A stretch of 64,000 bases of DNA from Curvularia clavata (taxonomy: Eukaryota): NCBI GenBank assembly GCA_023920165.1, contig CP089279.1:2108001-2172000 (forward strand), written 5' to 3'. The notes beneath the pieces were generated by a model that searched no databases, had not been told where the DNA came from, and worked only from the letters and a program-made list of their open reading frames with translations. This document shows, piece by piece, positions 28,433 to 43,565 of this stretch. How positions within the stretch are numbered: the stretch's first letter is position 1; each line of letters starts with the position of its first letter. Position numbers and translations under genes: made by a program.

Positions 28433-31400
28433 CTACCTCACGGACTTTGAGCTTCTAATGCCTAGCTTTGCTAGCCCTTGTACCAGCTTTGACTGTTTGC
28501 CTGCGTATGCACGTCCACTACTATCCGTAGTTGGAGAAGAGACAGCAAGCTGGTGCTGCTTGTGCAATGCAAGCGCGTCAGTGTAGTGCTGGTGACACTT
28601 ACGCGTGGTTAAGTGAGCCCTCCCAAGCGCAGTTTCATACCCAGTGACCGCTCTCTCGTATAGAGCAAGAGCTTCGTTATAGTAATACTGATTTGTAAGA
28701 AGATTGGCAAGGCAGTGTACGCTCATCAGCGTAGATGTGTGCTTATGCCCGAGTACCTTCTCCTTCCGCGCCAGCGTCTGTCTGTTTATCGCTTCTGCCT
28801 CTTCGTATTTACCCTGGCTGCTTAGTACTTGTACTAAGTTATGCATACTTGTCAGCGTATCTAGATGCTCATGCCCAAGCACCTTTTCCATCAACGCTAG
28901 CGTCTTTCGGTTTATTACCTCCGCCTCTTTGTAATTGTTTTGCCTATTTAGTACTTGGGCTAAGTTGTGCATACTTATTAGCGTATCTGGATGCTCATAT
29001 CCAAGTACTTTCTCCCTCCGCGCCAGCGCTAGTCTGTTTATCGCCTCCGCCTCTGGGTACTTGCCCTGCCCGTATAGTAATAGCATCAAGTTGTGCATAC
29101 TCGTCAGCGTGTCTAGATGCTCAGGCCCAAGCACCTTCTCCCTCCACGCCAGCGTCTGTCTACTTATCGCCTCCGCCTCTTCGTGCTTGCTCTGGCTGTC
29201 CAGCACCAGCGCCAAGTTGCTCATGCTTGCCAGCGTATGTGGATGCTCATTCCCGAGCACCTTTTCCCTCCGCGCCAGCGCCTGTCTGCTTATCGCCTCC
29301 GCCTCTGGGTACTTGCCTTGGCTATCCAGTACTAGCGCCAAGTTGCTCAAACTCGTTAGCGTGTCTGGATGCTCGTACCCGAGTACTATTTCCCTCTGCG
29401 CCAGCGTCTGTCGGTTCATCGCCTCCGCCTCTAGGTGCTTGCTCTGGCTGTCTAACACTACCGCCAAGTTGCTCATACTCATTAGCGTATCTGGATGCTT
29501 ATACCCAAGCATCTTCTCTCTCCGCGCCAGCGCCTGTCGGTTTATTGTCTCTGCCTCTTCGTGCTTGCCTTGACTATTTAGCACTTGCGCCAAGTTGCTC
29601 ATGCTTATTAGTGTATCTGGATGCTTATACCCAAGCACTTTCTCTCTCTGCGCTAGCGTCTGTCGGTTTATCGCCTCTGCCTCTAGGTACTTGCTCTGGC
29701 TATCTAGCACTAGCGCCAAGTTGTTCATACTTGTCAGCGTGTGTGGATGCTTATGCCCAAGCACCTTCTTATACCCTGCCAGCGTTTGCCTGTGCATCGC
29801 CTCTGCCTCTTCGTACTTACCTCCAAGCTCTCTAGCTAGTCCTACCATCTCCATACTGTTCAGCGTTCTTATATCTTCTTCTCCAAACTCTTTGCTTCTA
29901 GTCTCCATCGAAATCGTCGCCATCTCTTCTGCTTCGCCTGCCCTCCCCTGTCGCCACGCATACCATGCTGCTCTATATAGCAACAACGCCCACTCTTTTC
30001 GTGACTCTCTACTCTTAGGCTGCTGTGATAGTGCCGCTCGTGTATGTGGAAACAGCGCTTGACACTTCTCCCAGTTTTCGTGCTCTCCTGTTGGCAGCTC
30101 TACGCACAGGTTTGAGATGAATTGCTCTCTCCACTTGTCTAGCTGCCCTTCGTTTTCAAGCCACGTACGCGTCGCTAGCTGTACTAGGCTGTGCATCTCA
30201 AACGTGTCTCTGGTTGCTGTAATAAACGAGTAGTCTCGCAGGGCTAGCACGTCGTCTTCAAATCTGTCATCTACTATACTACACTGTTGGTGGAGTAGAG
30301 CTTCCTGGATCCCCTGTCGGTCAAAGAAGCTCATTAGCGATAGCAGGTCTGCTGCTGACTGTCTTATACTTCGTATGTGGTTGAACGAGATCTGCCACGT
30401 TACTAAGATAGAGTTACTAGCCTCTAAGATGGAGTTGCTAGCTACTATACCTCGGCGAAGGTGACCCGCTTCGCGATTCAGTAGACTCGTTTTCCTGCGA
30501 TCGCTCTGCTGGTACTCCTTGAGATACTGCTGCACAGAGCACCGTGGTGCTCGCTCTCGAATATATGCTGCCGCCTGTACGAGAGCAAGCGGCATGTAAT
30601 CGAGCGTCGTAGCTAGTGTAGCGATGCTGTCGTCATCTTTGTCATCTATATCGCCTAGCTTCTTACGGAGCAGCGCATGTGCAGCCGCATCGTGCATTGG
30701 CTCAACTAGTATAATGTCACTATTCTCCACAATCTGCATCGCTGCGTGCTTTGCCCGACTCGTTATCAGGACTGTGCCGTATCTGCTGGGAGGCAGATAG
30801 CTCGATAAATGCTGCCGGAGACTACTGCTATCTGTCGGAGAGACTATAGCAGCATTGTCTATGTTGTCGAGCACTAATAGCCACTGTCCATTCTTCGCAT
30901 CGTGCAGCCAGTCGTGTACTAGCTTAAACACATCCACTTGCGGGTTCTTGCGCCCATAAGCCCTGACTTGGTTGGCGATCTCCTGGAAGCTCTGCTTAAG
31001 TCGCGCGGTGTTACTCGCATGCGCCCAGAACACCCATGTGTCCGGCGACTGTTCGGCAATGCGGTAGCAGTACTCGATGGCTAGCTGCGACTTCCTGTGT
31101 CGTATGTTAGGTGTGAGCACCAACCTAATGTTCCTTCCTTGGGCTTACCCCACGCCGCCGAGGCCCACCAGCGCTACCCGCGATGCTGGTGCTGCGCATC
31201 GCTTGCCAATCTGATCGAGCAGCGTTCCATGGTCGACGAAGTCTGGGTCGCGTCTAAACGGGACGTTGAACGACGGCTTAGGCGGCGTCTCGGGTCGTTC
31301 TAGCGTCGCGCTGTCGTCAGCGGCTAATAAACAAGCGCACGTATTTCAATAGCATTCAAGGCTGAGCTTACCTGGTGGTAGATAAGTGTAATTATATGCT

Positions 31401-32142
31401 AAAACCAGCATGGTCAGTACGAATTCATCGAAATGGACTTGGGCACGCTGTGAACTGATGCTAATAAAAAAGAAACCGCCTCGATTGAGAAATCAGTGTG
31501 ACCACGCGAGGACGGTAATTACGTACTGGAAGGGCCCTCATTGTACACACCAGGACTGATGATCTGCCGATTGTTGCTTCCACCAACTACATAATTCGTA
31601 GGACTGCCGCCTTCATTTGCAATAATGTTGCCCGCTCCAGCATGTGTATACTTGCCGTCCTCATCCCCTAGTGCTTCCGTAACTTGCTGCAGTGCATCCA
31701 GCTTGTCGCCAATAACATAGATCTCCTTCTGCTCTAACAGTCTCAAGTTGTCTTGAATGGTCACCAGAAGCTTCTGTACCTGGCTATCTCGGCCGAAGAA
31801 GACAGTCTTTGCGCCTCTCCAGATGCGCTTGGTACGATTCTCCCCATCTTTTGGGCACGCTTTCCTAAATATATCTCTTAGTTCAGCTAAAGCCTCCTCG
31901 CACTGTTTCAAAATCGGCTGTGCCTTCTTGCTGGCATCCTCTTTGATACTCTCTTCCTCGTAGCTCTCCTGCGCACTTTCCAACAGTTCTTGGATCGCTG
32001 GCAGCTTTTCGAGCAGGTCTCGAAGCTTTGGCGGTAATCCTTGAGCATCGTGAACGGCACGCCCAATGTCGATGATCGTATTAGCGATGCCGATGCAGGC
32101 GTCGATCAGCTGGATGGCGGTAATGGCTTCGGCACCGGACAT
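28433..32142 (-). CDS. NLR-like protein: SesA-like N-terminal domain, Gly/Asn-rich motif, NB-ARC, TPR array (~1151 aa, 4 exons)
   Basis: Exons 32142-31527, 31398-31372, 31299-31149, 31094-28433 join in frame (3456 nt). Splicing rebuilds ERPETPPKP..VPFRRDPDFV and P-loop GLGGVGKSQ. Walker B WLLVLDNID, LPLAL-like MPLAL, about ten 42-aa TPRs. Confidence 0.85.
28620..29880 (-). repeat. 126-bp tandem repeat array encoding TPR units
   Basis: Repeated xHPDTLxSMxNLAxVLxSQxKxxEAEAxxRQxLAxREKVLG units. Confidence 0.9.
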
Positions 32143-33000
32143 TTCGGATCATCGGTGCGTACACAAGCTGGGTGTGTTGGGTAGGTATGGGCGCGTATTC
32201 CGGAGGCAGGAGGGTATTCTAGCAATGCAGGCAGGCAGGCAGGCAGGCAGACAGGAAGGCGAGCAAGTCGCTTATAAACCAGACCGACAAGGTCCTCGTG
32301 GGGCTAGGACTAACATAGGCGCTTGCGCATGCATCAGAGGAGCTGCATGTTCATATCTTAGGCTGGGCTGAGAGCTGTCGAAGGCCCCCGGGGGTTCCAC
32401 CTTTCGGGCAGGCAGGCGCTTAGCTACCGCTCGCGATATGTGATAGATTATTACCGCTAATATACTTGCGGCTTTTCTATACGACCTGCAGCTAACGCCT
32501 TAAGCCGTTGATCCTGCAGAACTTGCACTGCAGCGCCACAATATTAGATACCGTGATACTTCGCTCGGGACAGACTCTTTGTATATGTTTGTATAGCCTT
32601 ACGAACTCTGAGATATATGCGAGAACCCTGCAGTACTTCCGAGGCCGCCACACGTGGAGGAATAGTAATCTGTATTCGTGTCACTTGATATTCATGGCTA
32701 TGGCTGCGTGTGCAGTCTTTGCAACGAGTGCAGTCATTCGTGTGTATGCACGCATGTGTACAAGACCCATCTTATCACCATCCTCCTTTTTAACGGTAAC
32801 GTACCGTAATGTGCTCAGGAAGTTTGAGTGTGTCTCTGGGTTTGCAGATCCCGCATCACCTGCCTCAGCATCCTCTGTCTCTGTTCTGCGAGTCAAGGCC
32901 TACATCCAGCAATCTCGCGCGCCTCTTCGTCCTGTGGAAAAGGGGGTAATCAACCCTTGGAGTCGCATTTCATATTCTTTGCTCGTGCGTGCAATCTTAT

Positions 33001-36613: not shown

Positions 36614-37485
36614 TTACTCGACCTCGGCCTTGGTCTCGAAGTTCTCACCAGCGACGAGCTCAGGGATGTCATCGTCATCCTCGTCATCCTCGTCCTTCTT
36701 CTCGCCGTCCTCGCCCTTCTCCTTCTGCATGCTCTGGTAAGACTCGGCCAGTTTGCGTAGCGATGCGAGCGAGTCGGGTCCGAGCTGGTTGAGAATGCCG
36801 GGGACGAGCTCTGTCAGCTCCTTGTCCTCACCGTGTCCGTAGATGGCAAAGGTGTTGGCGGGAACTGAGGCGTGAACTACAGTGACAGAAATGTCAGTTT
36901 CTGTTTCGACATCAAAGCGAAGAGTGTCCAGTTGACCAAGATGTTTGCGCGTCTTCCACGGCGCAACACTTGCTCAACTTGAACTGCCCCTGTAGTATAA
37001 CAGAGAGCGGAGATCTGGTGACATACCCTTGGGCGCCGAGAAGTGGATGACGTTGCCGTCGCTCTTGAACATGTTGACCTCCTCAATGGCCTGGATGGGC
37101 TGGACGTTGAGCTTCTTCAGGGCAGTCTGGAGCTTCTTGTCGTCGGTACCAGCGCCCCTGTGGACCTTCTTGACCTTCCTGCGGGGAGTGCCCTTGCCGC
37201 TATAGATCCAATTAGCTTCGTCTACCTCATGAGCTCAATCTCCACTCCGGACTGGTTCTTCGATTATAGCGGGGTGCGGCGGGAGTTTCACAAATTCCGT
37301 GTGGTACTCGGTGCGGGGCTGTCAAAATAGATGATGAGAGTCTTGCTTACCCTGTGCACATGTGTTAGCAGTTGTATATCAGAGAGACACAACCAATGGC
37401 CTCCTTAAACAAGCTCAAGCTTGAATTTCCTCGACATACCAATGCGCACTGACGCCTGCATACGCGCCAACTTTGCGTGATCCAT
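36614..37485 (-). CDS. EGD1: Nascent polypeptide-associated complex beta (BTF3), 160 aa; exons 37485-37440, 37351, 37199-37027, 36876-36614
   Basis: [63 protein letters not shown]. The frame requires a 1-nt exon at 37351. Confidence 0.93.
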
Positions 37486-38276
37486 ATTTGCGGTGTTGAG
37501 AGAGAAGGCTCGTGAGTGGAGAGAACTGTGGCAGCCAAACGTCAGCGGTCGGTTCCAATTGCACGGGGGTTCGAGCGGTCGAAACTGGAGCGGGCACGGG
37601 ATCGTACGCACCTAAATTCGGGATCGTGGCCGAGTCTTGGAGTGTGGTGTAGCTGGTGAAGTTGTTGCGGGCATCGGCGAAACTCTACGGAAGCGCCGAT
37701 TGTGTGCTTGCCTCGCTTGTCGAATGCTCTTCCCCGCAACGTCAGAGGGCGCGCGCTCTCCCACAACTAGCATGAATGACTGTGACAGATACCGCTACTT
37801 TTGGAGGCAGAATCGTTCGTGCTAAGAACACAGTAAACAATAAGTAACTGTGACAAGTACAGCTACTTTAAAAAAAACAGAATGCCATCTCCGGTTTCAC
37901 CAGCTGTGGGAGAGGTGCGCCACCGACAGTCAATCAGAGCGCTCACGAACACGACATGCATTCTTCACCATGCGGGACCGTCATTTGAGAGATACTTGGT
38001 TCTATTATAACCCATACCGCTGACATGCACTCAGCAAGCCATTGGCTAAACGTCAGTCGCCTCTCCAATATTAGAAGCTTTCTTGGCACCAGCTGCTTCA
38101 CATACAGCAGGCCATCTGAACGTAAACTAGACGCAAACACCATTGAGTCGCATGCGCTGGTTGGCGAGAACCTGCTGGAGAAAAAAGTAAAGGGCTCAAT
38201 TGTACACGCATAAATACGCTATGAAATCAGGAATTTGTTAAACTTGCTGCCACCTCCATCCACTCTAAAACGCTAC

Positions 38277-39023
38277 TCAAAGCATGGCCAATCCAGCAAG
38301 ACCAGCAGCACCCAACACCCATAAGATGGCCTTGGCCTGTGTTGTTGCGCCGTTCGATTTACCGGTCGATTGAGGCGCTGCTGCACTACCGCTACCAGAA
38401 GCCTGGGGCTTGTCGTCGTCGTCACTTCCGCCTGATCCCGAAGATGTCGAGTTAGGGTTACCAGAGATGTTCTCTTGAACCACCTTTACACCCGTGTTGT
38501 TCTTGCAGTTGTTGTCAAAATCCGACTGGGAGAGCTGCTTGTCGACCAGGGTAACGTCGGCGCACTATGCTGTCGTCAGCGACTCGGCGCATGTAAGACT
38601 GGTGATTCAATGACTTACCTGGTACAGACCGCCCTCGCCGTGGGCGTTAGATACGACTTGAATAGATGCCTTGGTGCCAGCAGTCACGTTGAGGCCCTTA
38701 GGAATGGTGACCGAGCCCATGCAGAAGTCACCCAGGCCCTCGACCATCAGCTGCTGCTTTGCGACTATGCTGAATCCGCTTCCTGGGTTGTCACCAATCG
38801 CCATGTATACTGCGACATTCGTCTGTGGGTGTCCCATGACCAACTGGATAGGACCACCGCTGATAGGAAAATCGGTACGATCCTGTGAAACGTCGTTGTA
38901 TCCTCCACACGGGAAAGTGCCTTCAATATCGTCGTTGAAACCTCGCGACTTGGGAAAGTTGAGGTTGAAGTGAGCGAGGGAGAGAGGGAGAAAAGAAAGG
39001 GCGAGGAGAGTATTGGAGAGCAT
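38277..39023 (-). CDS. GPI-anchored BIM1/X325-like (LPMO-like) copper-acquisition protein
   Basis: Signal peptide followed by His1 (HFNLNFPKSRGF..PCGG), MGHP, GLYQ|CADV across intron 38565-38618, Ser/Gly linker and hydrophobic GPI tail. Confidence 0.85.
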
Positions 39024-39136
39024 TCTGGTGGTTTGACAGGCGTAGGACTACAGTTGTTGATAGTGTCTGAGGTTTGAAGAAGGAGAGCGAAGGAGAGAGC
39101 GAGTCGACGATTAAAAGAGAAGTCTATTGGTACGGG

Positions 39137-39437
39137 AAATCTGCTCACACGTACCGGCTTCCTTTCGGAGGCGCACCGCCTTTTGTATCAGACCCAGGAG
39201 ACGGGCACACTTGCCGCCATGCCGTGCATTCTGTCCTACTACTACGTCGCGTGGCTCGCGCGTCGAGCCAACAGCCGTACATATGCGTCTGCCGGACTCT
39301 GATACGTTCTAACTTCCTGAAGAACACAAGCCGCTGATCTAGGTGTTTTATACCTGATACTCTCTCAATGGCGCTGTGTTCTGGTTGGAAAGATTCAGGG
39401 TAGGCTATCCCGTGGATGCAGAAGCGTGAGCAAGTTT
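39137..39437. promoter_or_regulatory. Two candidate Mac1/Cuf1-type copper-response elements upstream of the BIM1-like gene
   Basis: AAATCTGCTCA at 39137-39147 (+) and AAACTTGCTCA at 39427-39437 (-). Confidence 0.65.
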
Positions 39438-39818
39438 CTTACCAAAGCAGTGGTGCTATGGATCAATGGTCGCTAGCGCACTGCAGGGATCCATTTCACT
39501 CCGACGCCACCGCTACATATGTAAAGTCTAAGCTTTGACATTGCGATCAGCCACACCACAAGGATGTCACGGAAATAACTGGGTTGATTCCTGGGGTCGG
39601 GCACAGGCACGAGAGGTGAGAAAGAGCACCCCCGCGCTGCATTGTAGCAAATGACCGAAGCCAGATCTGTCAAAGCGCGGAGTAATTATTCCTTGCAAAA
39701 TAAGGCTTATATGAGAACTAATAGGTACATGGGCCTCTATTACACCAACACTGGCAGGTTTCAGTCCCAGAACAGTAATCTACGAAGCGAAAAATCAAAA
39801 GCAGAGCCCAATCGGTCG

Positions 39819-40470
39819 TTAATGAGGCGCGGCCTGATTGAATCTGCCGAAAGCCAATTCACCAATAAATGTGCCTGCCAAAACAGACATGAAATATCCA
39901 ACGTTATAAGTCATGACTGCCAACATGCTGTTGACACGTTAGTGCTGATCAGGAAGGGGTTAACTTTGATTGTGCTTACAGGAGGTATCCGACACCTGCC
40001 GCGACCATCATCAAGAATGCGCGTGGGAGGTCAATGCCAAACCTCCAGGGTTGAATGTGAGATACGGGCGCGGAGACAATACGAACGTTCTCCTGAACGC
40101 CGTTGGTGGTAAGAATGCCGGTTGTTGAGTTGGAATCGTTGGCTGCGCTTTCGAGCACTGTCTTATCGCCGGCCACGACCACATAACGGCGGTTCAGGGC
40201 GCTTTTGACAGCCTTGATTTCCAGGAAAGTTTTGGCTGTGAAAAGGGCGCGGAGTAGGATGGCGAGGAAGATGAGGAAGATGCATGTTCCTGCATATTGG
40301 CCAGCTGTCGACGGGGTCCACGCATTGGAATACAGAGGCGTATTGGTAGCCGTGAAGAAGGCCATTGCCATGCCACCATGGCCGCTGGAAGTCGAAGAGT
40401 CCATGGGCATATCAGCGCCCATATCCATGCCAGCCATGGCCATGCTGTCGTGATCCTCATGTGCAACCAT
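39819..40470 (-). CDS. Ctr-family high-affinity copper transporter
   Basis: Met/His-rich N-terminus (MVAHEDHDSMAMAGMDMGADMPM), MAMAF, W.P.T.GQYAGTCIFL, MxxxM (MLAVM) and GxxxG after intron 39928-39979. Confidence 0.93.
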
Positions 40471-40759
40471 GATGCAGATGTGATGGTACGGTTGTCAAGA
40501 GGATGTCTAGTGGTGGTCGTGATGTGGCTTCACAGAAGCTACGTTTACCGTTGTGTGGGAGGGACAGGTATTGATGATCAGGTACCGAGTTCCAGACTGC
40601 AGAGCCAATATTCGGGCAAGAGGTCGCTTAAAGGTTTCCTTGGTCAAGTGTGGGGTTACACACTGGGCGGTTCTGATCTGGGATGATACCGGCGTATAGG
40701 GCTTGGTAGGGACGCATAAACCTGAGGTGTCAAGATATTGCTTCTGTGTAGAGAGCTGA

Positions 40760-41047
40760 GAGCAAATGCGTGGGATCTTGCGACAGTCAAGAGCCCGTCA
40801 AGTCTGGGCTGAAGCGTGAAGCGTCGGGACAGGTAAGGATATGGCCCGGCAGCACCATGGAGCCGAGATGCCAGGCTGAGGACTCATTCGGCCATGCTAA
40901 GCTTACGATTATGCCGGGCCAAGTGGGCCAGTGCATGTTGCAAGGTATTCAAGAAGGGGCGAACCCCTTCATGGCGCCGTGTGAGCCAGGGAGCCATGGA
41001 GCGACTTTGAGCAGATTTAGCCGCTTGCGGTTAGATAAACTTGCTCA
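40760..41047. promoter_or_regulatory. Candidate copper-response elements in the Ctr/FRE divergent promoter
   Basis: TTTGCTC on the minus strand at 40760-40766; inverted pair TGAGCAGATTT (41008-41018) and AAACTTGCTCA (41037-41047). Confidence 0.7.
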
Positions 41048-41456
41048 AGCAACGCCAGCGCCCGCGGCCTCGACCACACCCGCCACTCCAGTATATACAG
41101 GCGGCAATTCGTGGCTATTGGAATAACATAATGTGCTGCAGTGACAGGCTGCATTTGCTACTAGAGCCAAAACAGGTGGCACCCTCGGTCTTTTGCTTGA
41201 GCCACTACCACACATCATCACATCGTTTACTTTGAATCACTTCTGCGCCCCAAACTTTCCCGCAGGCTTTATCGGTAGTCATCATTGCGAGAAAAGCCCT
41301 CGTTACTCCTGTTCACAACTACCAGCATGCGCTGAAGGCCAAGCTCTAGACCCATGTTCCTCCTGATTCCGTGTCTGCACGAGAACCGTTCCGAAGACCC
41401 GTAACTGCAATACAACCAAAGCAAGACGCTACGCCAGCGCGCCAACAACAGATACC

Positions 41457-43565
41457 ATGAGCCACGATCATATGTCCATGGGCTCCATGGGCTCGCTGCC
41501 CGCCCTCACCGAGTTTCCGGGCTTCTACTATGCAGTAGTGGGCAGCGCAGTCGCAGTCGCTACACTCTTCAACGTCTACAACTACCTGCTGTACCGACAA
41601 AGATTGTCTGCTGCAGGGCGAGGTGATCCGACACCTGCGAAACCGAAGTCATGGTTTGCCCTCGGAAACGCCACAATATATGCTTTAACACGGGAGGCGT
41701 CCAACTATTCGATACACATACCGGCAAAGAATCGCGTCATTAAGTTACCTACCATTGGTCGAACTTCATTGATTTTGGCAAACTTGGTAGTTTTGGTTGT
41801 GCTGTGTCTCTACGGGCTGGACTTGCAGAATCAATTCACTCGAGAAAATGTTGGGTTCCGGTGTGGTGTCATCACAATCTCACAAATCCCAATCATCGTC
41901 TTACTCTCAAGCAAGAATAACATCATCGGCTGTCTCAGCGGCATAAGCTACGAACGACTCAACTGGATACACCGGTGGTGCGCTCGATGTATGCTTTTCA
42001 CAGCAACCATGCATATGGGCTGGTTCTTCAGTGCATGGGCGCCATACGATTATATTGGTTATCAGCTCAAGAACAGCAATATTGTATGGAAGGGCCTTGC
42101 TGCTTGGTGTACCTTGTTTTGGATGGTTTTCAGTTCCATGACGCCTATCCGAGGGTGGAGTTATGAGATTTTCGTCATTCAACACATCATCTCTTTTGCC
42201 GTTTTTCTTGCGTTCGTCTACCTCCATACCCCCGTCGAGATGCACGGCTACGTTTGGGCACCGGTTGCTATCTTCCTCTTTGATCGCCTCTTTCGTGCGT
42301 TACGTCTGTTGTACATCAACGTCTCGTTTTTCCATCCCTCGCACAGACAACAAGGAGGAAAGAAGGGCCTCTGGGCATGCGAAGCCGAATTTACATCTCT
42401 TCCGCACACCACGACAAAAATAGTTGTTCGAAACCCGCCCGTGGGTTGGAAACCCGGTCAACATGTTTACCTGTCCTGTCATTCGGTTGTGCCTCTGCAA
42501 AGCCATCCTTTTACTATTGCCTCGATACCAGAGGACGGACGGATGGAGTTTTACGTCAAGGCCGAAAAGGGTGGGACAAAGCGCTTCTTCAGTCATGCCG
42601 AGAAATCAGGAAGATTGCCTGAAGCATCAGTGAAGCTCAAAGCGGTAACTATCGAAGGTCCTTATGGTACCTTACGACCGCTCCGTCAGTTTGACAGTGT
42701 TATTCTTTTAGCAGGCAGTACTGGAGGCACTTTTACCATGCCACTACTTCGCGACCTCATCCAGGGCTGGCAGGAAAACGCCAACCGGGATATGTTGAAG
42801 TCAAGTTCACTCCTACAAGCACCTAGCGGCGCTGTCACACGCCATATTCGCTTTGTCTGGGTGGTCAAGAGCAGCGGCCAACTCAGCTGGTTCTCCGAGC
42901 AACTCTCCTCCATCTACACAGCATTCCAAACCCTGCAAGAAAAGCTCCGAGACATCAAGCTCGAAATGAGTGTCTACATTACCTGCGACCCCTCGTTCAC
43001 CGAAGGCCACAAATCCCTTCTTTCAGGCGTAGCAACCGCCACCTCGTCGCGACAGAATAAAGCACCGCACGGTGCCGTACACTACAACGACGCCACCAGC
43101 AAACCCGAAGCAGAGAAACAAAAAGACATAGCCATCCATGAAATTCGCTCCAATGGTACCACCAGCGCCGAACGCTCCTGCACTCAACCCATCAGCCTCC
43201 CAAACTCCTCCTCCTGCTGCTGCTACGCGCCCATCTCAGAAAAAGACCCTTTAACCCAACGAAAAGTCTGCCGTTGCTCCACACAATCCGCCTCATCAAC
43301 AGGATCCGCGCAGTCTCGCCCTGCGTCTTTTATGTCCTCGCCACACCCAGGCATAGCCGTCTTCGCGGGTCGTCCTCAGACACGCGACATCATACGGAGG
43401 TCGCTTGAGCAGGCGTGGGGTGAGAGTGCAGTCGTGGTGTGTGGGCCGCATGGTCTCGTTGCTGATGTGAAGAGGCATGTTGTAGCGCTGAGTGATGAGA
43501 GGGCGGTGCATAAGGGGACAGGCGCGCAGGGAATATACCTGCATACTGAGAGTTTTGGGTGGTGA
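41457..43565 (+). CDS. Ferric/cupric reductase (FRE family)
   Basis: Heme His pairs (WIHRW..MHM, IQH..YLH), FAD motif HPFTIAS, EGPYG, VVCGP, HTESF. Confidence 0.93.
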   Translation: MSHDHMSMGSMGSLPALTEFPGFYYAVVGSAVAVATLFNVYNYLLYRQRLSAAGRGDPTPAKPKSWFALGNATIYALTREASNYSIHIPAKNRVIKLPTIGRTSLILANLVVLVVLCLYGLDLQNQFTRENVGFRCGVITISQIPIIVLLSSKNNIIGCLSGISYERLNWIHRWCARCMLFTATMHMGWFFSAWAPYDYIGYQLKNSNIVWKGLAAWCTLFWMVFSSMTPIRGWSYEIFVIQHIISFAVFLAFVYLHTPVEMHGYVWAPVAIFLFDRLFRALRLLYINVSFFHPSHRQQGGKKGLWACEAEFTSLPHTTTKIVVRNPPVGWKPGQHVYLSCHSVVPLQSHPFTIASIPEDGRMEFYVKAEKGGTKRFFSHAEKSGRLPEASVKLKAVTIEGPYGTLRPLRQFDSVILLAGSTGGTFTMPLLRDLIQGWQENANRDMLKSSSLLQAPSGAVTRHIRFVWVVKSSGQLSWFSEQLSSIYTAFQTLQEKLRDIKLEMSVYITCDPSFTEGHKSLLSGVATATSSRQNKAPHGAVHYNDATSKPEAEKQKDIAIHEIRSNGTTSAERSCTQPISLPNSSSCCCYAPISEKDPLTQRKVCRCSTQSASSTGSAQSRPASFMSSPHPGIAVFAGRPQTRDIIRRSLEQAWGESAVVVCGPHGLVADVKRHVVALSDERAVHKGTGAQGIYLHTESFGW

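Follow-up and report, generated by a model that had tools for sequence, protein, structure and literature searches.

A 64,000-nucleotide stretch of the Curvularia clavata contig CP089279.1 (positions 2,108,001 to 2,172,000; hereafter the window) contains three adjacent genes, all intact, at positions 38277..43565. They encode a BIM1/X325-like protein (hereafter X325), a Ctr-type copper transporter (Ctr) and a FRE-type metalloreductase (FRE). C. clavata belongs to a lineage that includes many crop pathogens. The interval runs from the end of the X325 stop codon (38277) to the end of the FRE stop codon (43565). Gene models, Pfam domains and splicing confirmed the order and orientation of the trio, with FRE divergent from Ctr, as claimed in a preliminary description of this DNA. 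The features were located as follows.

38277..38564, minus strand: X325 exon 2 (domain end, Ser/Gly linker, hydrophobic tail read as a glycosylphosphatidylinositol (GPI) signal)
38565..38618, minus strand: predicted X325 intron, 54 nt, GT-AG; skipped in contigs of 4/4 runs
38619..39023, minus strand: X325 exon 1 (leader, His18, His65, His128 loop); PF20238 E 2.9e-29, LaX325 6IBH E 3.5e-8
38640..38642, minus strand: His128 codon, probable third copper ligand by comparison with relatives; mostly Asp in distant relatives
38829..38831, minus strand: His65 codon, second histidine of the brace; matches the internal His of 6IBH in the alignment, invariant in 28/28
38970..38972, minus strand: His18 codon, probable first mature residue and His1 of the brace; aligns with His1 of 6IBH, invariant in 28/28
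39137..39147, plus strand: Mac1-type box AAATCTGCTCA upstream of X325; fits DHNTGCTCA (PMC11563359)
39427..39437, minus strand: Mac1-type box AAACTTGCTCA upstream of X325; motif match
39819..39927, minus strand: Ctr exon 2 (MxxxM motif, last membrane helix); splice 39927/39980 in contigs of 3/4 runs
39980..40470, minus strand: Ctr exon 1 (Met/His-rich outer end, 9 Met and 3 His in 58 amino acids)
41008-41018, minus strand, and 41037-41047, plus strand: opposed Mac1-type box pair in the shared Ctr/FRE promoter; motif match
41457..43565, plus strand: FRE-type metalloreductase, one exon, 702 amino acids

The two-exon X325 gene (39023-38619 and 38564-38277) encodes 230 amino acids, the length of the database protein P0001, which was 100% identical over the exon-1 query. 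Assembled contigs of public runs had the X325 intron spliced out in 4/4 runs and the Ctr intron in 3/4; these were 4 of 22 listed runs, two of them merely guessed to be RNA, and their contigs came without growth conditions. The Ctr gene (40470-39980 and 39927-39819) encodes 199 amino acids. Its product matched PF04145 (E 5.8e-21), with a Met-rich outer end and an MxxxM motif at the exon junction, and it is a member of the Ctr family. The FRE protein contained the domains PF01794, PF08022 and PF08030. Two H-x13-H pairs were located in its membrane domain (at 172 and 243) and HPFTI at 350; with a paired-His heme domain and FAD and NADPH domains it is a metalloreductase. Within the NADPH domain there is a Cys-rich insert containing CCC and CxC (residues 587-607, window 43200-43290), which is possibly metal-sensing.

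The same contigs gave some observations on the spacers. One spliced contig spanned Ctr, the full 795-nt spacer (39024-39818) and X325 in each of X1 and X5, runs from two different studies that were guessed to be RNA, and 39337-39603 of this spacer was uncovered in runs X9 and X14. Read-through from Ctr to X325 and overlapping untranslated regions are both possible, and the contigs cannot decide between them. Contigs of run X1 stopped at 40977 and restarted at 41101, flanking the Ctr/FRE box pair, a weak hint only. Several relatives' database models (P0007, P0010, P0011 and P0034) join X325 and the NAC gene downstream of it into one protein (window 36614-39023). We read these fusion proteins as merged gene models, as contigs of the window gave separate spliced pieces for each gene.

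The X325 protein belongs to the BIM1/X325 family and has the beta-sandwich fold of LaX325. It scored 102.8 bits with the PF20238 profile against a cut-off of 27 (E 2.9e-29), and LaX325 (6IBH) was its sole significant PDB sequence match (E 3.5e-8). LaX325 was also the top Foldseek match of the predicted model (E 6.2e-9), and structure comparison of the two gave Z 13.8 and a root-mean-square deviation of 3.0 over 137 aligned residues, the next family reaching Z 8.6. Model confidence (pLDDT) was mostly 70-88 across the domain and below 50 in the leader and tail. The hydrophobic leader is followed by His18, His65, four cysteines, a Ser/Gly-rich linker and a hydrophobic tail (residues 215-229). Ala17-His18 was invariant in 28/28 aligned relatives, as was His65. 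His18 is the probable first mature residue, with the cleavage site placed by prediction, and the tail behind its linker points to a GPI anchor. Thus the GPI-anchored His1 X325-like protein of the preliminary description was upheld in its family and in the alignment of His18 with 6IBH; the anchor remains putative, from the tail.

The putative copper site of X325 differs from that of LaX325 and Bim1. In LaX325 and Bim1 the histidine brace is completed by an Asp on a Gly-rich loop (PMC7529816), and two reviews call X325 proteins Asp-ligated. The loop reads NAHGEGG here and GGDG in LaX325, where the residue is Asp122 by count on the X325/6IBH alignment; there is no Asp in the loop of X325, and His128 and Glu130 are found instead, a difference that the preliminary description does not mention. 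Judged by its residues, X325 is a family member with a site type other than the His-His-Asp of Bim1 and LaX325. This difference sits within the family, because the loop Asp is not invariant in PF20238. Scored five residues before a conserved Leu, the loop position was parsable in 226 of 279 homologs, and 88 of the 226 had His. Relatives of at least 60% identity had His in 69/91, with Glu at the position of Glu130 in 23/91; of the 135 below 60%, 66 had Asp and 19 had His. At trio-linked loci, His occupied the position in 7/10 close and 0/14 parsed distant ones. On the X325 tree, His was found in 10/12 rows of one Pleosporineae group (group support 88/61) and recurred in Periconia, Exophiala and Geopyxis. 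Because of this pattern, with His in close relatives and Asp in distant ones, His128 is likely the third copper ligand. However, the loop exceeds that of LaX325 by one residue, and the pairwise alignment puts Glu130 on the Asp. Asp138, first assumed to be the third ligand, was dropped after alignment with 6IBH.

The genome encodes two unlinked BIM1-like paralogs, L016 (G000:C5:875338-875929) and L017 (C3:3970125-3970451), both with His in the ligand loop; a box precedes L016 at a distance of about 480 nt. The His-for-Asp variant was not found in the literature searched, and the original X325 and Bim1 descriptions may already note it; it is possibly the one new detail of the locus. The Asp and His versions of one natural loop offer a ready comparison for His-brace chemistry.

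Regulation of the trio was addressed through its promoters. The window contains four AAAYYTGCTCA sites: two lie in front of X325, and the other two stand in opposite orientations in the Ctr/FRE spacer. All four fit DHNTGCTCA / DHNTGCTCANNN, the consensus from chromatin immunoprecipitation of Mac1 in Fusarium oxysporum (PMC11563359). A shuffle test of AAAYYTGCTCA within the window is circular, the motif having been read from those four sites, and reliance was placed on DHNTGCTCA and on other genes. Four of the window's 25 DHNTGCTCA sites fell within the 1.8 kb of trio promoters, where 0.7 were expected (P 0.006). Across loci, DHNTGCTCA was present in 26/28 X325 upstream regions, where shuffles gave a mean of 8.9 and a maximum of 13, and in 25/27 Ctr-FRE spacers, where they gave a mean of 9.4 and a maximum of 17. 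Of the control regions behind X325, just 4/23 had it; related loci are not independent in these counts. The core box was kept at distant loci in 16/18 X325 upstream regions and 14/16 Ctr-FRE spacers. AAAYYTGCTCA occurred 89 times in the 32.4-Mb genome (control 42), and it lay at most 1 kb upstream of 2/5 other Ctr matches and 1/2 other BIM1-like genes (3/7; P ~6e-7). Neither trio spacer contained the yeast-type box TTTGCTCA. The genome also has a Mac1-like gene, which contains two Cys-rich repeats. These motif data suggest that the trio is probably under Mac1 control. Boxes on an ascomycete X325 gene were not found in the literature searched.

The Mac1-like gene itself (L102, G000:C4:670935-674015) has two DHNTGCTCA boxes, at 440 and 572 of the locus, which is ~0.9-1.1 kb upstream of the matched exon; self-regulation is possible, as is service to a neighbour. 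A second Ctr locus (L002:2877-5368, G000:C5) has an upstream pair of boxes 32 nt apart, and the gene preceding this Ctr is one that we take to be DJ-1/PfpI-like. A DJ-1/PfpI family is in the F. oxysporum Mac1 list (PMC11563359).

To examine linkage, a Ctr-anchored scan of metagenome contigs was used, in which the best 80 of 143 confirmed relatives formed 50 clusters at 90% nucleotide identity. The scan is biased to trio-type Ctr, and no locus was assignable to Sordariomycetes. Of the clusters reaching 2.5 kb or more downstream of Ctr, 24/29 had X325 on the same strand within 3 kb; of those reaching 2 kb or more upstream, 24/29 had a divergent FRE. The full trio was found in 19 of the 23 informative clusters, those with both flanks long enough (the other 27 were too short on one side), and in 13/17 clusters with Ctr less than 60% identical. 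The locus tags of X325 and Ctr were consecutive in 5/5 assemblies showing both. The nearest named proteins to the linked X325 were from Xylona, Exophiala, Blastomyces, Blumeria, Hyaloscypha and Viridothelium, which are not identifications of the loci. Synteny, named as a check in the preliminary description, bore out the association of X325, Ctr and FRE, and X325 linkage was kept in distant loci.

Four of the 23 informative clusters lacked the trio, three missing X325 or FRE and one being rearranged. In the latter (L090, 3542-10384), a different FRE is divergent from X325, another gene follows, then Ctr, so that X325 is 4 kb upstream; FRE beside an X325-type gene resembles the BLP2-FRE pair of Pseudogymnoascus destructans. 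The loci lacking the trio were scattered among trio rows on the Ctr tree, which suggests losses.

In close relatives the trio is part of a more extended block that also includes a kinase, a BTB protein, NAC-beta and further genes, where the labels NimA-like for the kinase and NAC-beta are partly our assumption. A control with the flanking genes was therefore needed, as X325 could stand beside Ctr and FRE merely through conserved block order. Close relatives indeed keep NAC downstream in 6/8 clusters and the kinase upstream in 3/5, and NAC was still at most 10 kb away in two distant clusters. However, the distant clusters (Ctr below 60%) had X325 downstream in 13/15 against NAC in 0/15, and FRE upstream in 10/13 against the kinase in 0/13, and X325 had boxes of its own in 16/18 distant loci. 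A passive neighbourhood is highly improbable on these counts. The trio is conserved and widespread, and its linkage outlasts that of the flanking genes.

We consider it probable that the trio is a copper-starvation module under Mac1, in which X325 gathers Cu(II), FRE reduces it and Ctr imports it. At low copper, Mac1 would bind the TGCTCA boxes of two promoters, that of X325 and the one shared by Ctr and FRE. The putatively GPI-anchored X325 would bind surface Cu(II) via its histidine brace, probably completed by His128, and raise copper at the membrane. FRE would convert Cu(II) to Cu(I), and the Ctr trimer would import the Cu(I). Mac1 binding, low-copper induction and Bim1-Ctr1 cooperation are carried over by analogy from other fungi. 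In P. destructans under the chelator bathocuproine disulfonate (BCS), CTR1a transcripts rose 12.0-fold and those of BLP2 3.8-fold (10.1101/2025.03.28.646060), and Ctr1a, BLP2 and the FRE beside BLP2 increased as proteins (PMC13208438). In Cryptococcus, Bim1 and Ctr1 interact physically and genetically (PMC9258870), which agrees with the role stated in the preliminary description. We infer copper binding by X325, its pairing with the trio Ctr and FRE, the order of steps and a direct hand-off to Ctr. Prediction of a complex of the X325 domain with the outer end of Ctr scored 0.00 in 2/2 runs, made without alignments and with the partner fold uncertain, and is evidence neither way. For the linked capture-reduce-import module of the preliminary description, linkage beyond the flanks, boxes in both promoters and BCS-induced homologs in P. 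destructans stand in its favour, and the chain of steps itself stays a proposal.

Several published observations weigh against this module. Ctr3 and Fre9 alone rescue the F. oxysporum mac1 mutant, and the Mac1 set listed there, in the part available, has no gene labelled BIM1-like (PMC11563359); induced X325 may therefore be dispensable. Judged by locus tags, the P. destructans Ctr1a gene lies apart from BLP2 and FRE, and BLP2 is abundant at every copper level (PMC13208438). Ascorbate hardly reduces purified Bim1 (PMC7529816), and reduction of protein-bound copper by FRE is therefore not a given. Bim1 also has Ctr1-independent wall effects (PMC9258870), and the corresponding Aspergillus fumigatus triple mutant is menadione-sensitive, with no test of copper limitation in the available report (PMC2481287).

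Some of these observations fit a parallel job for X325 within the same Mac1 regulon, in which it would store or buffer wall copper or aid wall remodelling and not feed the trio Ctr directly. The cbi1/bim1 mutants of Cryptococcus have wall and high-copper phenotypes absent in ctr1 mutants (PMC9258870), the abundance of BLP2 in all conditions (PMC13208438) and the sufficiency of Ctr3 and Fre9 (PMC11563359) point the same way, and YcnI of Bacillus subtilis is proposed to sequester copper beside an importer. On the other hand, X325 is tied to one Ctr type: the genome has two further Ctr/FRE pairs, whose FREs are 25-26% identical to the trio FRE and which no X325 adjoins, and this suits a specific partnership, as does the physical and genetic Bim1-Ctr1 interaction (PMC9258870). 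We regard a parallel job as rather unlikely.

A cluster serving iron uptake or direct oxidative defence, or an X325 acting as an oxidase like the lytic polysaccharide monooxygenases (LPMOs) and fed by FRE, would account for the A. fumigatus cluster being neutrophil-induced and required for menadione resistance (PMC2481287). The fold of X325 is LPMO-like, and the altered third ligand could shift redox behaviour. However, the A. fumigatus triple mutant is normal on low iron and not H2O2-sensitive (PMC2481287), a copper-starved superoxide dismutase would also explain menadione sensitivity, and no GATA-type site (ATCWGATAA) was found in either trio spacer. For Bim1 (PMC7529816) and other X325 proteins (a review), no polysaccharide activity is reported in the accounts available. 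These functions are very unlikely, and the copper-starvation module is preferred.

In a bolder form of the module, which we hold to be doubtful, the trio would be an ancient unit in filamentous ascomycetes, dedicated to the capture, reduction and import of Cu(II), and the Pleosporineae X325 would have changed to a His18/His65/His128 site. If so, a three-His site could be reduced more easily than the His-His-Asp site of Bim1, and the linked FRE would free copper straight into Ctr. Bim1-type uptake would thereby gain the release step it lacks, since release of copper by Bim1-type proteins to Ctr channels is an open question (PMC9258870). Copper uptake matters to F. oxysporum when it colonises plants (PMC11563359).

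Elsewhere in the window (28433-32148), an open reading frame with a SesA domain lies with one of 903 amino acids with many tetratricopeptide repeats. The two make up a NOD-like-receptor-like pair and may be one split or intron-bearing gene.

Among known systems, the closest to the trio is in A. fumigatus. Sugui et al. (2008) described Afu6g02800 (putative GPI protein), Afu6g02810 (ctrA2) and Afu6g02820 (metalloreductase) as adjacent genes that were co-induced by normal neutrophils and deleted together; the triple mutant was menadione-sensitive and normal on H2O2, low iron and neutrophils (PMC2481287). Gene kinds, adjacency and order are as in the window. AFUA_6G02800 is listed as the match of P. 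destructans VC83_07867 (PMC5810475), later named BLP3 (10.1101/2025.03.28.646060), and three consecutive A. fumigatus accessions match P. destructans BLP2, Ctr1a and Fre7 (PMC13208438). From gene order, these published homolog tables and trio loci of the Ctr-anchored scan at which the best match of X325 was a Blastomyces protein, Afu6g02800-02820 is very probably the same trio. A published Afu6g02820 probe matched 0/101 loci. In the part available, the 2008 paper did not attribute copper binding to the GPI protein, and it reported neither Mac1 sites nor a copper test (PMC2481287). Afu6g02800 may appear in the tables of A. fumigatus Mac1 transcriptomes. The preliminary description knew of no account that includes the linked X325 gene in this fungal group; the A. 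fumigatus trio qualifies this, and what holds is that the literature searched yielded no paper in which the trio is called a BIM1 cluster. In the parts available, PMC8425704, PMC6354809 and PMC11509074 add nothing on the trio.

Bim1/Cbi1 of Cryptococcus neoformans shares PF20238 and the His brace with X325, has a GPI anchor of the kind predicted for X325, is induced at low copper and works with Ctr1 (PMC7529816, PMC9258870); it differs in its Asp third ligand, where X325 has no loop Asp, and in its regulator, Cuf1. LaX325 of Laetisaria arvalis (PDB 6IBH/6IBI/6IBJ), the best sequence and fold match, aligns at both brace histidines, although it is from a basidiomycete, only ~30% identical and different in the loop. 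Ctr-FRE pairs are well known: the order ctrA-freC is kept in 110/127 species (PMC7705104). The pairs ctrA-freC of A. nidulans (PMC7705104) and ctr3-fre9 and ctr1b-fre12 of F. oxysporum (PMC11563359) have, like the trio, a shared promoter with Mac1 sites, but no BIM1-like third gene is described for them in the parts available. A. nidulans CtrA is a CtrC-like channel (PMC7705104), whereas the trio Ctr appears to be CtrA2-like, another type. In ycnKJI of B. subtilis, the surface His-brace protein YcnI is encoded with the importer YcnJ and exchanges Cu(II) with it; the system is bacterial, with unrelated proteins and no reductase, and is an analogy only. As the trio of A. fumigatus, other Ctr-FRE pairs and the role of Bim1 were already known, the novelty is modest: known parts are brought together, and no new kind of system is described. 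Set beside these systems, the conserved trio gives a testable function for Afu6g02800, which is uncharacterised, and lets the triple mutant of 2008 be read anew, and it names a likely partner channel and reductase for Bim1-type proteins in tractable filamentous fungi.

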